From: Escherichia phage ZCEC10
Direction: 5' to 3' (one strand)
DNA length: 44,776 nucleotides
Sequence record: NC_073075
Each line of letters starts with the position of its first letter. Position 1 is the stretch's first letter. A program made the translations under genes and the position numbers. This document shows, in pieces, positions 1 to 44,776 of this stretch. The notes beneath the pieces were generated by a model. It worked only from the letters and a program-made list of their open reading frames with translations. It did no database searches and was not told the DNA's origin.

Positions 1-77
1 GCGTCCTGCATCCTGTCGACGGGGGGAATAATAGATTGGTTGCAGGATGGGTGTCAACAACTAATTTCAAAAAAAAA
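1..77. repeat. Terminal direct repeat, left copy, identical to 44700..44776; probable circular-assembly overlap
   Basis: First 77 nt read identically at the last 77 nt of the window. Confidence 0.85.
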
Positions 78-174: not shown

Positions 175-203
175 TTGACACCGTGCAGTTTTGGGTGTAG
201 TTT
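175..203 (+). promoter_or_regulatory. Possible sigma70-like promoter for the 235..564 gene
   Basis: TTGACA at 175..180, 17-nt spacer, TAGTTT at 198..203; weak -10. Confidence 0.3.
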
Positions 204-234
204 CGTTGGTCATTAACCAACTGAGGGCAGAGCA

Positions 235-564
235 ATGAATGTAAACGACGCAATCGAAATGTTAACGAAGACTGTTTGCAGTGAGACAAGCCGGTCATGG
301 GCTTATACCGATGCCGTGGGTGCGGTGTTATTTGAAATCGAGCGCCTGCGCAGTGTCGAAAAAGAATTGCGCGCCCGGCTGGAATTACTCAACGGTACGG
401 CAGCAAGCAAGCTGCAAAAACACAATGAAGAAATGGAAGAATACAAAAAGCAGGTTATCCGTTTGCGCGCCGAGGGTAAATCGTGGGCGATGATTGCCGA
501 GTTGACCGGAATTAATCAGAGCACAGTGCGCTCTTGGGTACGCAATAATAAAACTTCTAAGTAA
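235..564 (+). CDS. Helix-turn-helix DNA-binding protein, putative transcriptional regulator
   Basis: 109-aa ORF; C-terminal GKSWAMIAELTGINQSTVRSWVRN is a classic HTH; GAGGG RBS upstream. Confidence 0.6.
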   Translation: MNVNDAIEMLTKTVCSETSRSWAYTDAVGAVLFEIERLRSVEKELRARLELLNGTAASKLQKHNEEMEEYKKQVIRLRAEGKSWAMIAELTGINQSTVRSWVRNNKTSK

Positions 565-2839: not shown

Positions 2840-2933
2840 ATTTTGCGCGCATTGGTTGCCATTTTGGGTGTTTTTATCCGGTCGTATTGGTTGCCGTGTA
2901 GTGTAAATATAGTGAATAGTTATGCAATAAAAC

Positions 2934-3110
2934 TGCATAAAGTAAGCGGGACAGAAAGCGGGACAAACAAGGGGCGGGACAAAGCGGGACAGCACCCCCG
3001 TCCCGCCCCGGATGGCGCGGCCTGGCGAGGAGCGGGACAGCGGGACAGCACCCCAGTCTTTCAGACTAGACGGGGGGTCAATGGCCCCCCTCGTCTGAGA
3101 CTGCATAAAA
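2934..3110. repeat. Iteron-rich GC repeat R1 (six GCGGGACA(A/G) units plus long imperfect hairpin), paralogous to 20084..20253
   Basis: About 90 percent identical by eye to the second copy; both begin TGCATAAAGTAAGCGGGACAG and end in the hairpin cagactagacgggggg...cccccctcgtctgagactg. Confidence 0.8.
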
Positions 3111-3263
3111 TCCGGGGATTGCAAAATACACGGCAGCAGGATGCGAATCGCGGTCGTGGGCGAACTAGGCAACCAATGCGATATGTATTATGTGGAGTGA
3201 AAAACGCAGTTTGCAGCCACAGCAGATAGCGATCAACTTTTTCATGCGCGTGATTAATATTGG

Positions 3264-3292
3264 TTGCACTTGACCCGGCACCTTGCTATATT
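3264..3292 (+). promoter_or_regulatory. Sigma70-like promoter (TTGCAC-17-TATATT) flanked by two ATTGGTTGCAC motif copies
   Basis: -35 TTGCAC 3264..3269, 17-nt spacer, -10 TATATT 3287..3292; downstream gene starts at 3320. Confidence 0.5.
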
Positions 3293-3319
3293 GGTTGCAC
3301 ACCAACAGGAGGGCAGAAC

Positions 3320-3810: not shown

Positions 3811-4080
3811 ATGAGCCGTAGGCGCGCCAAACAGCTTTCGTGGCATATTCCCCTGCATTGCATACGAATATGGGCTGAGAATGCGAATGCGGGCGAATCG
3901 GTATTCTGGTGCTATCGCGATGACGTGAAGCCACTGACGCAGACTCGCTACTTGCACCAGTTTGCAGCACAACACGATTTCAGGGTGCGGACTTCCTTGC
4001 AACCAATGGGGGTCCGTATTACATTACGCCGGAAGCCCGCCGTTGAGAGGGTAGGCAAACACTGGAGACTGGCAAAATGA
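3811..4080 (+). CDS. Hypothetical basic protein
   Basis: 89-aa ORF, RBS-like GGGGCC upstream. Confidence 0.45.
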   Translation: MSRRRAKQLSWHIPLHCIRIWAENANAGESVFWCYRDDVKPLTQTRYLHQFAAQHDFRVRTSLQPMGVRITLRRKPAVERVGKHWRLAK

Positions 4081-6787: not shown

Positions 6788-6815
6788 AAGCCCGCCGTAT
6801 TGGCGGGCTTTTTAT
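6788..6815 (+). terminator. Rho-independent terminator
   Basis: Stem agcccgcc/ggcgggct with loop gtatt, followed by TTTTTATT. Confidence 0.75.
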
Positions 6816-6900
6816 TGTTCGACCTGCGACCAATTAATATCCCATACTGCGGTCGCCGTGATATATTGACCGCGGACAATCTGAATCAGGAAGATATGCA

Positions 6901-13163: not shown

Positions 13164-13177
13164 TGGCCCCCTTTTGT
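13153..13177. terminator. Bidirectional rho-independent terminator between convergent genes
   Basis: Stem ggggcc/ggcccc with loop gtaat, AT-rich on both flanks. Confidence 0.7.
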
Positions 13178-13941
13178 TAGCGCGGAATACCGCAGATTTC
13201 GTTTAACGTCTTCACGTCCAGCGCCACCGCCGTGGACTTCAGCTTATCCGGGTATGGAATAAACTGTTCAACTTCAGGCCATGCTTTGATCAGCTTCTTA
13301 TCGGTATTGTGCATATCCAGCACGCCGGTAACAGTAAGTTTGAACGCGTCATACTTAGCTCGCAAATCGCGGCGGGCCTTGTCGTTACGGTCTAGTCGCT
13401 TGCAGAAATCGTGGTCCGCTGGGTAGTCTACACGACCGCGCGGAAGATATATCGGCAGCGCTTTCCCGTCCTCGTCGACTTCGCACACTGACGCGAGCAT
13501 AACTGTCTCGAACCCCGGAACGATATCGCCGAGATCAGGAGCGAGCTTATCCATATATTTCTCTTCCCAGTACCCGCGACGTACTCGGAATCGGTGTCCG
13601 TCTCCGCTCAATGACAGTGTGCGCACATTTCCGCCTGCGTTGATTTCGAAAGTGGCGTCGTAAACGCTGCCGATGCCTTTTGGGCGGTCGGCGTTATAAC
13701 TATACGTCGCCTTGTTGGTGTATACGCATACTCCGTACATCTGCGACGGGTCATCGCCGATTGCTTCAATGCGCGCGAGTAGCTCGGCGAATGTGCGAAT
13801 GCCTTCCGGCATACAGTCCAGCGTAATGTCATACGCCAGGTCGCGTGAGTCCATCATTATTGATTTGGCTTCGGTCGCGATTTCGTGGTCGCGCAGGATG
13901 TTAGCCAGAATCTGGTTTTTAATGTCTTTCGTCAGTCTCAT
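13177..13941 (-). CDS. Hypothetical protein (254 aa), antisense island within the head module
   Basis: Long clean ORF on the minus strand; no recognisable motifs. Confidence 0.7.
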   Translation of the reverse strand: MRLTKDIKNQILANILRDHEIATEAKSIMMDSRDLAYDITLDCMPEGIRTFAELLARIEAIGDDPSQMYGVCVYTNKATYSYNADRPKGIGSVYDATFEINAGGNVRTLSLSGDGHRFRVRRGYWEEKYMDKLAPDLGDIVPGFETVMLASVCEVDEDGKALPIYLPRGRVDYPADHDFCKRLDRNDKARRDLRAKYDAFKLTVTGVLDMHNTDKKLIKAWPEVEQFIPYPDKLKSTAVALDVKTLNEICGIPR

Positions 13942-13980
13942 TTGTGTGTCCTCGTGGTGGGGGCTTTCGCCCCGTTTGGT

Positions 13981-14295
13981 TTAGTTAAACTTGATGTTGC
14001 CGCCGGTGGAAGTTAAGCGAGCGCATACAGCTTCAACGGCATCGACGCACATGAAATCGTTAAAGGCTTCTACCAGGGCTTTGATGAAAGATGCCGGAAC
14101 CAGACCGCAAGCCGGATTGTCGAAGGTTGCAGAATTGATTGCGGCCTTCGCGGCTTCAGTAGCGTTCATGCTCTGGCACAGATTCAACGCTTCGGCGTTA
14201 CGCATTGCGTGAAAGGTAAAGGTATTGGCTACGGTAGCTTTATTGAAACGGGTCATTGCTACGTCTACTGGAGTTGCTACGGTCATGTTAGTCAT
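13981..14295 (-). CDS. Hypothetical protein (104 aa), first gene of the antisense island
   Basis: ATG at 14295 with AAGGAAAA RBS; the longer track ORF extending to 14748 is an N-terminal shadow over the scaffold gene. Confidence 0.55.
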   Translation of the reverse strand: MTNMTVATPVDVAMTRFNKATVANTFTFHAMRNAEALNLCQSMNATEAAKAAINSATFDNPACGLVPASFIKALVEAFNDFMCVDAVEAVCARLTSTGGNIKFN

Positions 14296-14330
14296 TTTGT
14301 TTTCCTTCATATCTCTGTTGGTGTGCAACC

Positions 14331-14359
14331 AATATATGCAACCAATACGAGGATTGCAA
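14331..14359 (-). promoter_or_regulatory. Sigma70-like promoter for the antisense island (TTGCAA-17-TATATT, minus strand)
   Basis: Minus-strand -35 TTGCAA (14354..14359), 17-nt spacer containing ATTGGTTGCA, -10 TATATT (14331..14336). Confidence 0.5.
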
Positions 14360-14449
14360 GCGAATTTTGCGATTATTTTTATCGCTGATAATATTAGAAG
14401 CGTGAAGTCGAGCGGGTGGCCCGCTCTGCCACAATCCCAGGGGGATAGC

Positions 14450-19187: not shown

Positions 19188-19217
19188 TTTGGTCGCTTAA
19201 ATAGCGAGTGATAATAT

Positions 19218-19244
19218 GGGGCCAGCACGGCCCCTTTTTTTTTT
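19218..19244 (+). terminator. Rho-independent terminator after major tail gene
   Basis: Stem ggggcc/ggcccc followed by T10. Confidence 0.75.
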
Positions 19245-19260
19245 ATTGGAGAATATTACA

Positions 19261-19937: not shown

Positions 19938-19943
19938 TGAAGC

Positions 19944-19973
19944 GGGACAAAGCGGGACGTCCCGCTTTGTCCC
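19944..19973. repeat. Perfect 30-bp palindrome GGGACAAAGCGGGAC|GTCCCGCTTTGTCCC
   Basis: Arms are exact reverse complements with no loop; built from the same GCGGGACA unit as the iteron repeats. Confidence 0.8.
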
Positions 19974-20083
19974 TACCTGTAAAACCGCATATCTAATCAC
20001 TATTATTGCATAAACTCAAAGCGGGACAGGCGGGGCGTCCCGTTTTGTCCCACCCCGAAATGTGCATACCTATTCGAATTTCG

Positions 20084-20253
20084 TGCATAAAGTAAGCGGG
20101 ACAGAAAGCGGGACAGCCAAGGGGCGGGACAAAGCGGGACAGCACCCCGTCCCCGCCAGTGCTGCCGCGGGTTTTAGCCGATCGGGACAGCGGGACAGCA
20201 CCCCAGTCTTTCAGACTAGACGGGGGGTCAACGGCCCCCCTCGTCTGAGACTG
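20084..20253. repeat. Iteron-rich GC repeat R2, paralogous to 2934..3110
   Basis: Same unit order and terminal hairpin as R1. Confidence 0.8.
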
Positions 20254-20320
20254 AATAAGGATTGTTTTAAAATCGCTGATACAATGTCAATCGGCAACTG
20301 CATAAAAAGGGGACTGCATA

Positions 20321-30164: not shown

Positions 30165-30190
30165 AAAAGCCCCGTTCGGGGCTTATTTGC
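30164..30190. terminator. Bidirectional terminator between convergent genes
   Basis: A-run, stem gcccc/ggggc with loop gttc, then T-rich tract. Confidence 0.65.
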
Positions 30191-30401
30191 AGGTTGTTCT
30201 TTTGAAGTTGTCGATAGACACATACTGGAAGTTGAATGGGTATCCCGCCCGTAACATTTTATGACCGCTAACGTCTGCAACCCCAAACACAGGGACGGAA
30301 TACTCCATACCACTATTCATGTATGTTGCGTCGCAGATTTTAGACGGCATGTCGGCACAACCGGACAAAAGAACCGCACAAATCATAATTAAAGTTTTCA
30401 T
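30183..30401 (-). CDS. Small lipoprotein, candidate Cor/Llp-like superinfection exclusion protein
   Basis: 72 aa from the ATG at 30401 (AGGAG RBS); signal peptide with lipobox LLSGC; antisense gene beside the receptor-binding genes. Confidence 0.55.
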   Translation of the reverse strand: MKTLIMICAVLLSGCADMPSKICDATYMNSGMEYSVPVFGVADVSGHKMLRAGYPFNFQYVSIDNFKRTTCK

Positions 30402-30482
30402 GGTATCATCTCCTATATTTGGTTGAGTTTTAGTATTGCACCTCTCAATCAAGAATGCAACCAATTTTATGAGGATTCAGCT

Positions 30483-33562: not shown

Positions 33563-33592
33563 AAGATACTGCAACCAACCTATTGGTTGCAA
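33563..33592 (-). promoter_or_regulatory. Putative sigma70-like promoter (TTGCAA-18-TATCTT, minus strand) inside a palindromic TGCAACCAA..TTGGTTGCA element
   Basis: Minus-strand -35 at 33587..33592, -10 at 33563..33568. Confidence 0.4.
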
Positions 33593-35188: not shown

Positions 35189-35236
35189 CGTGTCGTCTCC
35201 AGGTATTAAAAAAGGGCGCCCAAACCGGACACCCTC

Positions 35237-35265
35237 AATATACTGCAACCAATCTAATTGTGCAA
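35237..35265 (-). promoter_or_regulatory. Sigma70-like promoter (TTGCAC-17-TATATT, minus strand) with two ATTGGTTGCA copies
   Basis: Minus-strand -35 at 35260..35265, spacer carrying ATTGGTTGCAG, -10 at 35237..35242. Confidence 0.5.
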
Positions 35266-38202: not shown

Positions 38203-38481
38203 CTATGCGACCAATTCAGCAACCAATAAATCACAGTCGGCGATGTTGTCTATAACGCGAACGTCCGCGCCGCGGCGGGCCATCCGCTCATGTTCACGTA
38301 CCTGGTGCGGCTTCGGTTTTCCTCCGGGGCGCTTCACTTCGACGAACACTATTTTGCCGTTGATGATGATAATCAGATCGGGCGCACCTGCGCGCCCCTC
38401 CCATGCCACTTTTCGGCAGAATCCGCCGACGGCTTTAACCAACTTCATAAGGTGACTTTGGATCTTGCCTTCTGGTGTCAT
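38203..38481 (-). CDS. VRR-NUC domain nuclease
   Basis: 92 aa; PDLIIIINGKIVFVEVKRPGG is a PD-(D/E)xK core typical of VRR-NUC; start overlaps polymerase stop. Confidence 0.7.
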   Translation of the reverse strand: MTPEGKIQSHLMKLVKAVGGFCRKVAWEGRAGAPDLIIIINGKIVFVEVKRPGGKPKPHQVREHERMARRGADVRVIDNIADCDLLVAELVA

Positions 38482-41783: not shown

Positions 41784-41873
41784 TTTCCAATTCCTCATTC
41801 TCACATGTATCGGGGTTATTGGAAGCCACCCCGTTCGGCTTGGTTGCTAATCTACTTGGTTGCGCCTAAGCGG

Positions 41874-44699: not shown

Positions 44700-44776
44700 G
44701 CGTCCTGCATCCTGTCGACGGGGGGAATAATAGATTGGTTGCAGGATGGGTGTCAACAACTAATTTCAAAAAAAAA
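44700..44776. repeat. Terminal direct repeat, right copy
   Basis: Exact match to 1..77. Confidence 0.85.
44727..44756 (-). promoter_or_regulatory. Sigma70-like early leftward promoter (TTGACA-18-TATTAT, minus strand) inside the terminal repeat
   Basis: Minus-strand -35 TTGACA at 44751..44756, -10 TATTAT at 44727..44732, spacer containing TGCAACCAAT; identical copy at 28..58. Confidence 0.45.

Follow-up and report, generated by a model that had tools for sequence, protein, structure and literature searches.

The intergenic stretch at 3255-3300 of Escherichia phage ZCEC10 (NC_073075; 44,776 nucleotides, referred to at its full length as the window) carries two copies of a 10-mer within a sigma70-like promoter, and the question raised by this locus is what reads a sequence that recurs in other promoters of the same genome. 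A first-pass annotation of the window had left two explanations side by side, namely a promoter class peculiar to the phage and an operator read by a regulator of phage origin, possibly the helix-turn-helix (HTH) protein encoded at 235..564. Our findings establish that the motif, RTTGGTYGCR, is real, strongly non-random, conserved across the genus Dhillonvirus and beyond, and embedded in host-type promoters. As to its role, an operator fits, and a distinct promoter class is disfavored by the use of at least four registers, in both orientations, around ordinary sigma70 hexamers. On balance we favor, with moderate confidence, the interpretation that RTTGGTYGCR is the operator of one phage DNA-binding protein, likely gp47, the product of 235..564, which would act mainly in negative regulation.

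Over its first 8 kb the window matches Escherichia phage ZCEC11 (OK310512.1) at 100% identity and over 100 Dhillonvirus members, the HK578/SO-1-like siphoviruses, at 89-92%. A position count around the core places all information in ten positions (R-TTGGT-Y-GC-R) and none in the flanks, giving an asymmetric, non-palindromic 10-bp consensus with 17-19 sites over the genome. The first-pass claim of genome-wide recurrence held against shuffled controls, as ATTGGTTGCA occurs 18 times in the window at no more than one mismatch versus 3.14 +/- 1.63 times in dinucleotide shuffles, none of 100 of which reached 18. In the unique genome, a 3rd-order Markov model predicts 0.08 exact copies and 3.1 sites at up to one mismatch, against 10 and 17 observed, and chance or low complexity was ruled out by the two models together. 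Recurrence in intergenic regions was likewise borne out, with 13 of the 17 sites in the 5.8% of DNA that is intergenic by a gene list hand-curated from annotations of relatives (binomial p = 1.6e-13) and three further sites in the final codons of genes. The motif is the commonest 10-mer in this genome and in six other Dhillonvirus genomes. Copies of one longer duplicated promoter cassette were ruled out as an explanation by the lack of information beyond 10 bp; a longer 22-nt stretch is common to the promoters P_gp49 and P_moron only. Rfam gave no match within the window.

The sites are listed in Table 1; all lie within one mismatch except the two-mismatch copies at 41839 and 41855 (+) and the degenerate site in front of gp47. 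The earlier site list was essentially right, though some coordinates lay 6-12 nt off (29 for 35, 44728 for 44734, 41851/41866 for 41839/41855) and the copies at 3168, 3998, 6825 and 38206 had been overlooked. Its placement of 29..38 and 44728..44737 in a terminal repeat does not stand. Positions 1-77 equal 44700-44776, an exact 77-bp duplication at the window ends, and a biological terminal repeat was rejected because, with one copy removed, the join aligns gap-free with the circular phage SO-1. The duplication thus looks like an uncollapsed overlap of a circular assembly and not phage biology, so that the copies at 35 and 44734 count as one site. Nor are the copies nearly always oriented with the downstream gene, as had been claimed, since seven of 19 (35, 3168, 3998, 6825, 33582, 41839 and 41855) are inverted relative to the accompanying promoter or gene.

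Reading each site in context, together with a consensus sigma70 scan, assigned one or two motif copies to the core (about -40 to +12) of about ten sigma70-type promoters, and at ten loci -35-like and -10-like hexamers lie 16-18 nt apart upstream of a gene on the same strand. As the motif itself contains TTGCA, the same 10-mers were transplanted to random genome positions as a control; the best sigma70-like score over the sites averaged 8.16, versus 6.00 +/- 0.36 for the transplants, none of 300 of which reached 8.16. The link proposed in the first-pass annotation is therefore not a by-product of the motif's own sequence. Four or more registers relative to the -10 are in use, in both orientations: -40..-31; within the spacer, mostly right against the -10; -9..+1; and -6..+4 or +2..+11. 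Copies at 3259, 35261, 38218 and 30456 serve as the -35 (TTGCA + N, 17-nt spacer); those at 14337, 35244, 33570 and 38206 lie in the spacer co-oriented with transcription and, except for 38206, adjoin the -10; those at 3290 and 14324 cover the -10 and start point and are there extended to the palindrome TTGGT-N5-ACCAA; and those at 35, 41855 and 6825 are inverted in the spacer. The arrangement TTGCA(A/C)-17/18-TATATT that had been proposed holds literally at 3259/3290, 14324/14337 and 35244/35261 and only as near-variants at 38206/38218 (TTGCTG-17-TATAGT), 33570 (TTGCAA-18-TATCTT) and 30456 (TTGCAT-17-AATACT). Copies other than the -35 ones are flanked by independent hexamers, and the TTGCA-type arrangement is absent from the leftward promoters around site 35 (TTGACA-18-TATTAT) and 41855 (TTGACC-17-TAGATT), the former of which, P_gp46, is the best promoter match in the genome (11/12). 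Intergenic gaps of the structural module that hold terminators only contain zero motif copies.

Table 1. Motif copies and the predicted promoter elements around them (window coordinates; strand in brackets)
Feature	Motif copies	Promoter elements	Placement and context
P_gp46, leftward	35..44 (+) ATTGGTTGCA, = 44734-44743; reads TGCAACCAAT on the - strand	-35 TTGACA 57-52; 18-nt spacer; -10 TATTAT 33-28	Fills spacer; gp46 ATG 11-9
P_gp47 (HTH gene), 175..221 (+)	Degenerate inverted site ATTAACCAAC 212-221	-35 TTGACA 175-180; 17-nt spacer; -10 TAGTTT 198-203	Palindrome GTTGGT-N5-ACCAAC (205-221)
Region B, left edge	2851-2860, 2886-2895 (+), two direct copies ATTGGTTGCC		Directly 3' of primase/helicase gene
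Region B, further copy	3168..3177 (-) ATTGGTTGCC	Weak leftward promoter-like TGCAAA-17-CATAAT	9 nt downstream of the promoter-like sequence
P_gp49 (locus in question), copy 1	3259-3268 (+)	-35 TTGCAC (3264-3269); 17-nt spacer; -10 TATATT (3287-3292)	Supplies -35
P_gp49, copy 2	3290-3299 (+)		Overlaps -10 and start point; palindrome TTGGT-N5-ACCAA (3291-3305); gp49 ATG 3320
gp51, internal	3998..4007 (-)	TTGCAA-17-TACATT (possible internal promoter)	+ strand TTGCAA possible -35
P_gp58, rightward	6825..6834 (-) ATTGGTCGCA	TCGACC-18-CATACT	Inverted in spacer
P_moron, leftward	14324..14346 (-): 14346-14337 and 14333-14324	-35 TTGCAA 14359-14354; 17-nt spacer; -10 TATATT 14336-14331	First copy fills spacer; second covers -10 and start point
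P_cor, leftward	30456..30465 (-)	-35 TTGCAT (30460-30455); 17-nt spacer; TGc-AATACT (30437-30432)	Motif is the -35
P_gp27, leftward	33570..33591, inverted pair TGCAACCAAC-ct-ATTGGTTGCA	-35 TTGCAA 33592-33587; 18-nt spacer; -10 TATCTT 33568-33563	Copy 33579-33570 in spacer
P_gp30, leftward	35270-35261 and 35253-35244 (-)	-35 TTGCAC (35265-35260); -10 TATATT 35242-35237	First copy supplies -35, second fills spacer; terminator hairpin 35236-35212 directly after -10
P_gp35, leftward, copy 1	38227-38218 (-) ATTGGTTGCT	-35 TTGCTG (38222-38217)	Supplies -35
P_gp35, copy 2	38215-38206 (-) ATTGGTCGCA	-10 TATAGT 38199-38194	In spacer
P_gp41, leftward	41839..41864 (+), two inverted two-mismatch copies CTTGGTTGCT and CTTGGTTGCG	-35 TTGACC 41877-41872; -10 TAGATT (41854-41849)	41864-41855 in spacer, abuts -10; 41848-41839 covers start point

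Each locus was aligned over seven genomes and then over 16-18 distinct Dhillonvirus sequences including IMG/VR contigs, and in these the motif columns are invariant while adjacent non-coding columns fall to 0-50% conservation. The P_gp46 spacer motif is unchanged in 16 distinct sequences with seven variable bases beside it, the copy at 3168 in 17 with varying flanks, and both two-mismatch copies of P_gp41 in 17. At P_gp49 both copies are invariant in 17 sequences, and the bases between them are kept in only about 0-90%. At P_gp30 the 7-nt stretch between the copies reads caattag, taattag, tagtcat, taatcat, ttgcgag or taaccct among phages, and both copies are kept. Some arrangements have changed, as KarlBarth and Gluttony carry a third copy at the region B edge through a 54-bp duplication, and the center of the P_gp27 pair is flipped in Gluttony with the palindrome retained. 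The copy at 3998 is also conserved but lies in coding sequence, so its conservation is uninformative. Three contigs with divergent gp47 homologues, about 72% identical to the window where alignable and with the same gene order, extend the comparison, for RTTGGTYGC is again the top k-mer and stands at orthologous intergenic places, with the last base of the motif mostly G. The two P_gp49 copies, 31 bp apart in the window, are 16 bp apart in one of these relatives (L131) and 13 bp apart in another (L133), which suggests selection for promoter occupancy rather than fixed geometry. A scan of viral contigs for paired motifs returned mostly chance matches or unrelated tandem arrays and no useful outgroups. 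Many separate contigs (L156, L160, L161, L175, L203, L206, L221, L223) of the Anaerolineales metagenome-assembled genome bin100123 also match the paired motif, and these matches suggest an unrelated repeat family of that organism.

These observations argue for an operator. The several registers, the use of both orientations and the turnover of site arrangement in relatives fit an operator better than a fixed promoter element, and copies in spacers and at start sites are conserved where RNA polymerase needs no sequence, which points to an operator and not to an element read by the polymerase. The motif set thus has the features expected of operators, a short site that overlaps core elements and is conserved beyond polymerase needs in 16-18 distinct genomes. 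Promoters close to consensus can do without an activator, and repressors typically bind in the spacer or at +1; repression is accordingly the mode of action that the site positions would favor.

Among the 30 phage proteins, mostly small, that were scanned against Pfam and PHROG, gp47 (235..564, +; 109 aa) is the only recognizable DNA-binding regulator, with a coiled-coil or long helix followed by a C-terminal HTH. These scans of small proteins found no phage sigma factor, RNA polymerase or MotA/AsiA-like pair. In Pfam gp47 matches HTH_23, HTH_28 and Sigma70_r4_2, the last above threshold, and its PHROG match, 9366, is labelled 'transposase'. Database names for the protein conflict, among them transposase, resolvase and 'DNA recombination nuclease inhibitor gamma'. 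In an AlphaFold2 model (pLDDT, the predicted local distance difference test score, of 87), a short helix precedes a long one of 59 residues (21-79), and the HTH occupies residues 84-107. Foldseek against the PDB gave no significant global match to this model, only local HTH matches (LuxR/GerE, DeoR, sigma region 4, resolvase), all at E > 0.6, and long but poor alignments to the E-helix and DNA-binding domain of serine recombinases. A search for relatives beyond the group placed the gp47 family (24 clusters) only in Dhillonvirus-like, motif-bearing contigs, which leaves no outgroup for a co-occurrence comparison. Residues 47-106 are nearly invariant over the 24 clusters, and the N-terminal ~45 residues are hypervariable and have been exchanged altogether in several lineages. 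The gp47 gene opens the rightward operon next to a divergent control region, and in the ~72% relatives its promoter (TTGACG or TTGCAC, 17-nt spacer, TATATT) bears a perfect inverted motif (CGCAACCAAT or TGCAACCAAT) over the start point, 8 nt after the -10. Covariation of the gp47 recognition helix with motif variants followed no clean pattern, in that relatives with Q95V lean to the terminal G of the motif in L129 and not in L133. A three-helix HTH of the homeodomain or resolvase kind typically reads about 10 bp per domain. From co-distribution and gene position, gp47 is most likely the protein that would bind the motif.

Taken together, we infer that a protein binds the motif, that gp47 is this protein and that repression results. 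One or two operator copies would be built into the core of about ten ordinary sigma70-type promoters heading early and middle units, namely the leftward DNA-metabolism operons (P_gp46, P_gp41, P_gp35, P_gp30 and P_gp27), the rightward small-gene and lysis unit (P_gp49), P_gp58 and the leftward inserts (P_moron and P_cor). A protein sitting at the -35, in the spacer or at the start point would keep host RNA polymerase off the promoter or trap it there, so that the binder would serve as a global negative regulator for the joint shut-off or tuning of all motif promoters; in the distant relatives it would also control its own gene. The long helix of gp47 probably dimerizes, and two flexibly attached HTH domains may tolerate the spacings of 12-35 bp and the direct, inverted and everted pairs.

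Several points weigh against a gp47 operator. Motif and gp47 are both universal in the group, which deprives their co-occurrence of discriminating power. In phage CHD5UKE2 the place of gp47 is taken by a homologue of 149 aa whose N-terminal domain is unrelated and whose HTH region is only 47% identical, with the recognition helix NRSTIRQW in place of NQSTVRSW, and yet the motif sites are the same as in the near-twin WF5505. No fold could be assigned to many of the small phage proteins, and the real binder could be among them. No convincing promoter was found for the region B sites at 2851, 2886 and 3168. If the lysis and packaging promoters were all repressed, late genes would have to be expressed by some other route, and the analysis identified none; the literature searched holds no binding, transcription-start or expression data for any Dhillonvirus. 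Finally, the -35 copies share an exact -40..-31 register, which is also compatible with an activator overlapping the -35.

This last point introduces the opposite possibility, positive control, in which a phage factor (gp47 or another) would recruit or remodel host RNA polymerase for middle genes in the manner of a class II activator, T4 MotA or a sigma region-4 substitute, the motif itself being the -35 of a phage-specific promoter class. We regard this as unlikely. At least five promoters and their distant orthologues place TTGCA(N) in one exact register, 17 nt upstream of the -10, the -35 hexamers TTGCAC, TTGCAT and TTGCTG match the consensus at only 3/6 positions, and gp47 passes the Sigma70_r4_2 threshold. 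The register, however, is equally explained by sigma70 using TTGCA as its -35, and the Sigma70_r4_2 match is of a generic HTH kind, with LuxR/GerE, resolvase and DeoR equally good in Foldseek. Furthermore, the motif has neither a fixed position nor a fixed orientation; copies lie in spacers, over start points and inverted, also in near-consensus promoters such as P_gp46 that need no activation, and the position of the second copy shifts among relatives. A bolder reading, which we consider rather doubtful, is that one 10-bp asymmetric operator doubling as the -35 would run nearly the whole early and middle programme of a lytic coliphage genus, its reader being a minimal coiled-coil, sigma-region-4-like HTH protein that competes with or replaces sigma70 region 4 and whose hypervariable N-terminus couples the switch to a fast-evolving partner such as a host factor or defence system; if true, a virulent enterobacterial phage would possess a global system of silencing or appropriation of the stoperator type.

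The motif might instead be the site of a host (Enterobacterales) protein that the phage uses for timing or host sensing, which would account for its constancy among phages with E. coli, Shigella, Salmonella and Sodalis as isolation hosts and in the phage whose gp47 is replaced by a distant homologue. The half-site ATTGGT may resemble half of GntR-type operators (UxuR/ExuR), but we know of no E. coli regulator whose consensus matches the TGC(A) extension, which is invariant, or the asymmetric copies that stand alone. The motif also drifts in step with phage lineage, as in the terminal G of the ~72% relatives, and a paired-copy scan of one genome per bacterial species gave, among the matches listed, scattered unrelated taxa only, a weak argument in itself; altogether we hold a host factor to be improbable. 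Very unlikely, in our judgement, is a role outside transcription (replication-initiator or primase-helicase loading, packaging, a nuclease or nickase target, or a recombination hot spot) to which the AT-richer intergenic placement would be incidental. Three copies do flank the repeat-rich region B beside the primase/helicase gene, the gp47 gene lies immediately upstream of that gene, and a 2026-bp terminal repeat in WF5505 begins close to the P_gp49 copies, but the sites occupy ~ten loci in base-pair registration with -35 and -10 hexamers, region A, which duplicates the region B repeat block, has no motif copy, and the transplant control showed that the promoter association is not due to the motif sequence itself. 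Barely plausible is a role in RNA, with the TTGGT-N5-ACCAA versions forming 5' hairpins for antitermination (like lambda boxB) or transcript stability. A 5-6-bp inverted repeat with a 5-nt loop does occur in three leaders (P_gp47, P_gp49 and P_moron) of a genome rich in intrinsic terminators; a start ~7 nt after the -10 would nevertheless leave the 5' arm of the P_gp49 and P_moron palindromes untranscribed, most copies lie upstream of start points or are inverted, and the hairpin is absent from distant relatives and has no Rfam match.

Viewed as operators, the motif set is a familiar kind of system and not a new kind. The T4 MotA box is a 9-10-bp asymmetric sequence in the -35 region of sigma70-dependent middle promoters that is read by a monomeric phage protein; such boxes have a fixed position (about -30) and orientation, replace the -35 and need the co-factor AsiA. 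Replacement of the -35 by a phage motif is shared with the Dhillonviruses, whose motif nevertheless varies in placement and orientation among -35 and -10 hexamers that look self-sufficient, and protein family scans detected no MotA or AsiA homologue. Lambda Cro and Mu Ner are small HTH proteins whose genes lead an early operon next to a divergent control region; during lytic growth they lower early promoters and autoregulate through a few palindromic operators at one or two loci. Similarly, gp47 is a small HTH protein and the first gene by a divergent region, but the site is asymmetric and spread over ~ten promoters. DNA-binding domains of resolvases read 9-12-bp half-sites at variable spacing, a property that the Dhillonvirus sites would require, and gp47 finds its only extended Foldseek alignments in the E-helix and DNA-binding half of serine recombinases (gamma-delta/Tn3 resolvase, Hin, Sin); unlike these it has no catalytic domain, the matches are non-significant, and the sites show no sign of recombination.

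Closer parallels come from other siphoviruses. The repressor gp71 of mycobacteriophage L5 is a monomer with more than 20 asymmetric target sites of 13 bp, termed operators in promoters and stoperators in intergenic gaps, and its action depends on their orientation (PMC9283540). L5 and its cluster A relatives resemble the Dhillonviruses in the use of a short asymmetric site (13 bp in L5, 10 bp here) repeated genome-wide (~20-30 times) in promoters or short gaps, in the involvement of one small phage HTH protein (here the candidate gp47), which in L5 silences many transcription units together, and in the overlap of a site with the -35 of the main early L5 promoter (PMC9283540). L5 is temperate and gp71 its immunity repressor, whereas Dhillonvirus relatives are reported as lytic (PMC5945888), with no integrase or CI-type repressor annotated among the seven genomes. 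L5 sites are strictly co-oriented, inactive when reversed and in many cases act on elongation (PMC9283540), whereas about a third of the Dhillonvirus sites are inverted and nearly all lie in core promoters, not between co-transcribed genes. Further, gp71 has 183 aa and two DNA-binding domains in its monomer, in contrast to the one HTH on a long helix of gp47, and family scans of phage proteins found no homology to gp71. Lacking co-orientation and a temperate immunity function, the Dhillonvirus motif is not a member of the L5 stoperator system. Among the Drexlerviridae, TLS carries 21 copies of a 21-nt direct repeat, aaATAGCACnnnTTGnTAAAA, that T1 and Rtp share; the authors who described it consider roles as stoperators, enhancers or UP elements (PMC11447400). 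These phages are likewise relatives that depend on host RNA polymerase and have ~20 conserved intergenic elements upstream of genes in terminator-bounded units, although the repeat differs in sequence and length, and neither pairs nor overlap with the -10 or start point were reported (PMC11447400). By analogy, the Dhillonvirus motif is probably the counterpart of the TLS/T1 repeat, with a tighter relation to core promoters.

The literature searched, which did not cover the original SO-1 paper, contains no mention of the motif or of any Dhillonvirus/HK578 promoter analysis, and the motif string returned primers only, so that the motif is apparently undescribed. Dhillonviruses are among the siphoviruses most often isolated on E. 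coli, are represented in the BASEL reference collection and are being engineered for therapy; the motif yields a map of ~ten likely promoters and a single candidate regulator, gp47, offers a comparison point for the unexplained repeats of the related T1/TLS phages, and marks sequences to keep or exploit when genes are inserted or re-timed.

Annotations for ZCEC11 and six related phages gave the layout of the genome. The rightward arm, which reaches ~32.3 kb, begins with the HTH gene (235-564) and the primase/helicase gene (575-2839); small genes and the lysis cassette come next, followed by the genes for packaging, head and tail. Recombination, polymerase, helicase and methylase genes lie in the leftward arm, between 44.7 and 32.3 kb. 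The GenBank record equals the window in length and is yet not a simple rotation of it. Two leftward inserts break up the rightward structural module, each with its own motif-bearing promoter. The insert at 13177-14295 (-) consists of a gene of the Nmad5 (nucleotide-modification-associated) type and a small gene (14295-13981), both driven by P_moron, and that at 30183-30401 (-) of a Cor-like superinfection-exclusion gene (30401-30183) driven by P_cor; around these inserts and elsewhere several ZCEC11 coding-sequence calls are over-extended or on the wrong strand compared with relatives. Back-to-back with P_moron lies a well conserved, motif-free rightward promoter-like sequence, TTGCGA-16-TAATAT at 14354-14394 (+), a candidate late promoter pointing at the scaffold and major capsid genes. 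P_gp58 directly follows the lysis-cassette terminator (6788-6810), and relatives have TTGACT-18-CATACT with two inverted copies at this place. The P_gp35 copies also code for the C-terminal LLVAELVA* of the VRR-NUC nuclease gene (38203-38227, -), which puts the promoter and putative operator inside a gene end. At 35212-35242 (-), transcription from P_gp30 is predicted to start within the 5' arm of a strong intrinsic terminator hairpin, where transcripts arriving from upstream would terminate and those starting there, without the full hairpin, would read through; a similar order of motif-like TTTGGTCGCT, GATAAT and terminator occurs at 19189-19245 (+), 3' of the major tail gene.

Two sets of longer repeats were also observed. 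The deposited genome of WF5505 (L007) has an exact 2026-bp direct terminal repeat (1-2026 and 45057-47082) that maps to window positions 3220 to ~5079, has its left end 39 nt upstream of the first P_gp49 motif copy and spans the small genes gp49-gp53; it could be a true terminal redundancy, giving the first-entering genes in two doses, or an assembly overlap of a permuted genome, and the source paper makes no comment on it. The other set, a repeat family (A)AGCGGGACA(G/A) that is present in 9-11 copies and whose AGCGGGACAG ranks second among 10-mers by frequency, lies in a ~190-bp block that is duplicated as region B (2930-3110), which is non-coding and 3' of the primase/helicase gene, and region A (19941-20320), a 380-bp non-coding gap from the tail chaperone (G/GT) genes to the tape-measure gene that holds zero ATTGGTTGCA copies. 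Both copies of the block end in a long inverted repeat, CCCAGTCTTTCAGACTAGACGGGGGGTCAA(T/C)GGCCCCCCTCGTCTGAGACTG. The SO-1 record annotates these 'region A/B' repeats, which form a family distinct from RTTGGTYGCR and may mark an origin, a packaging site or something else.

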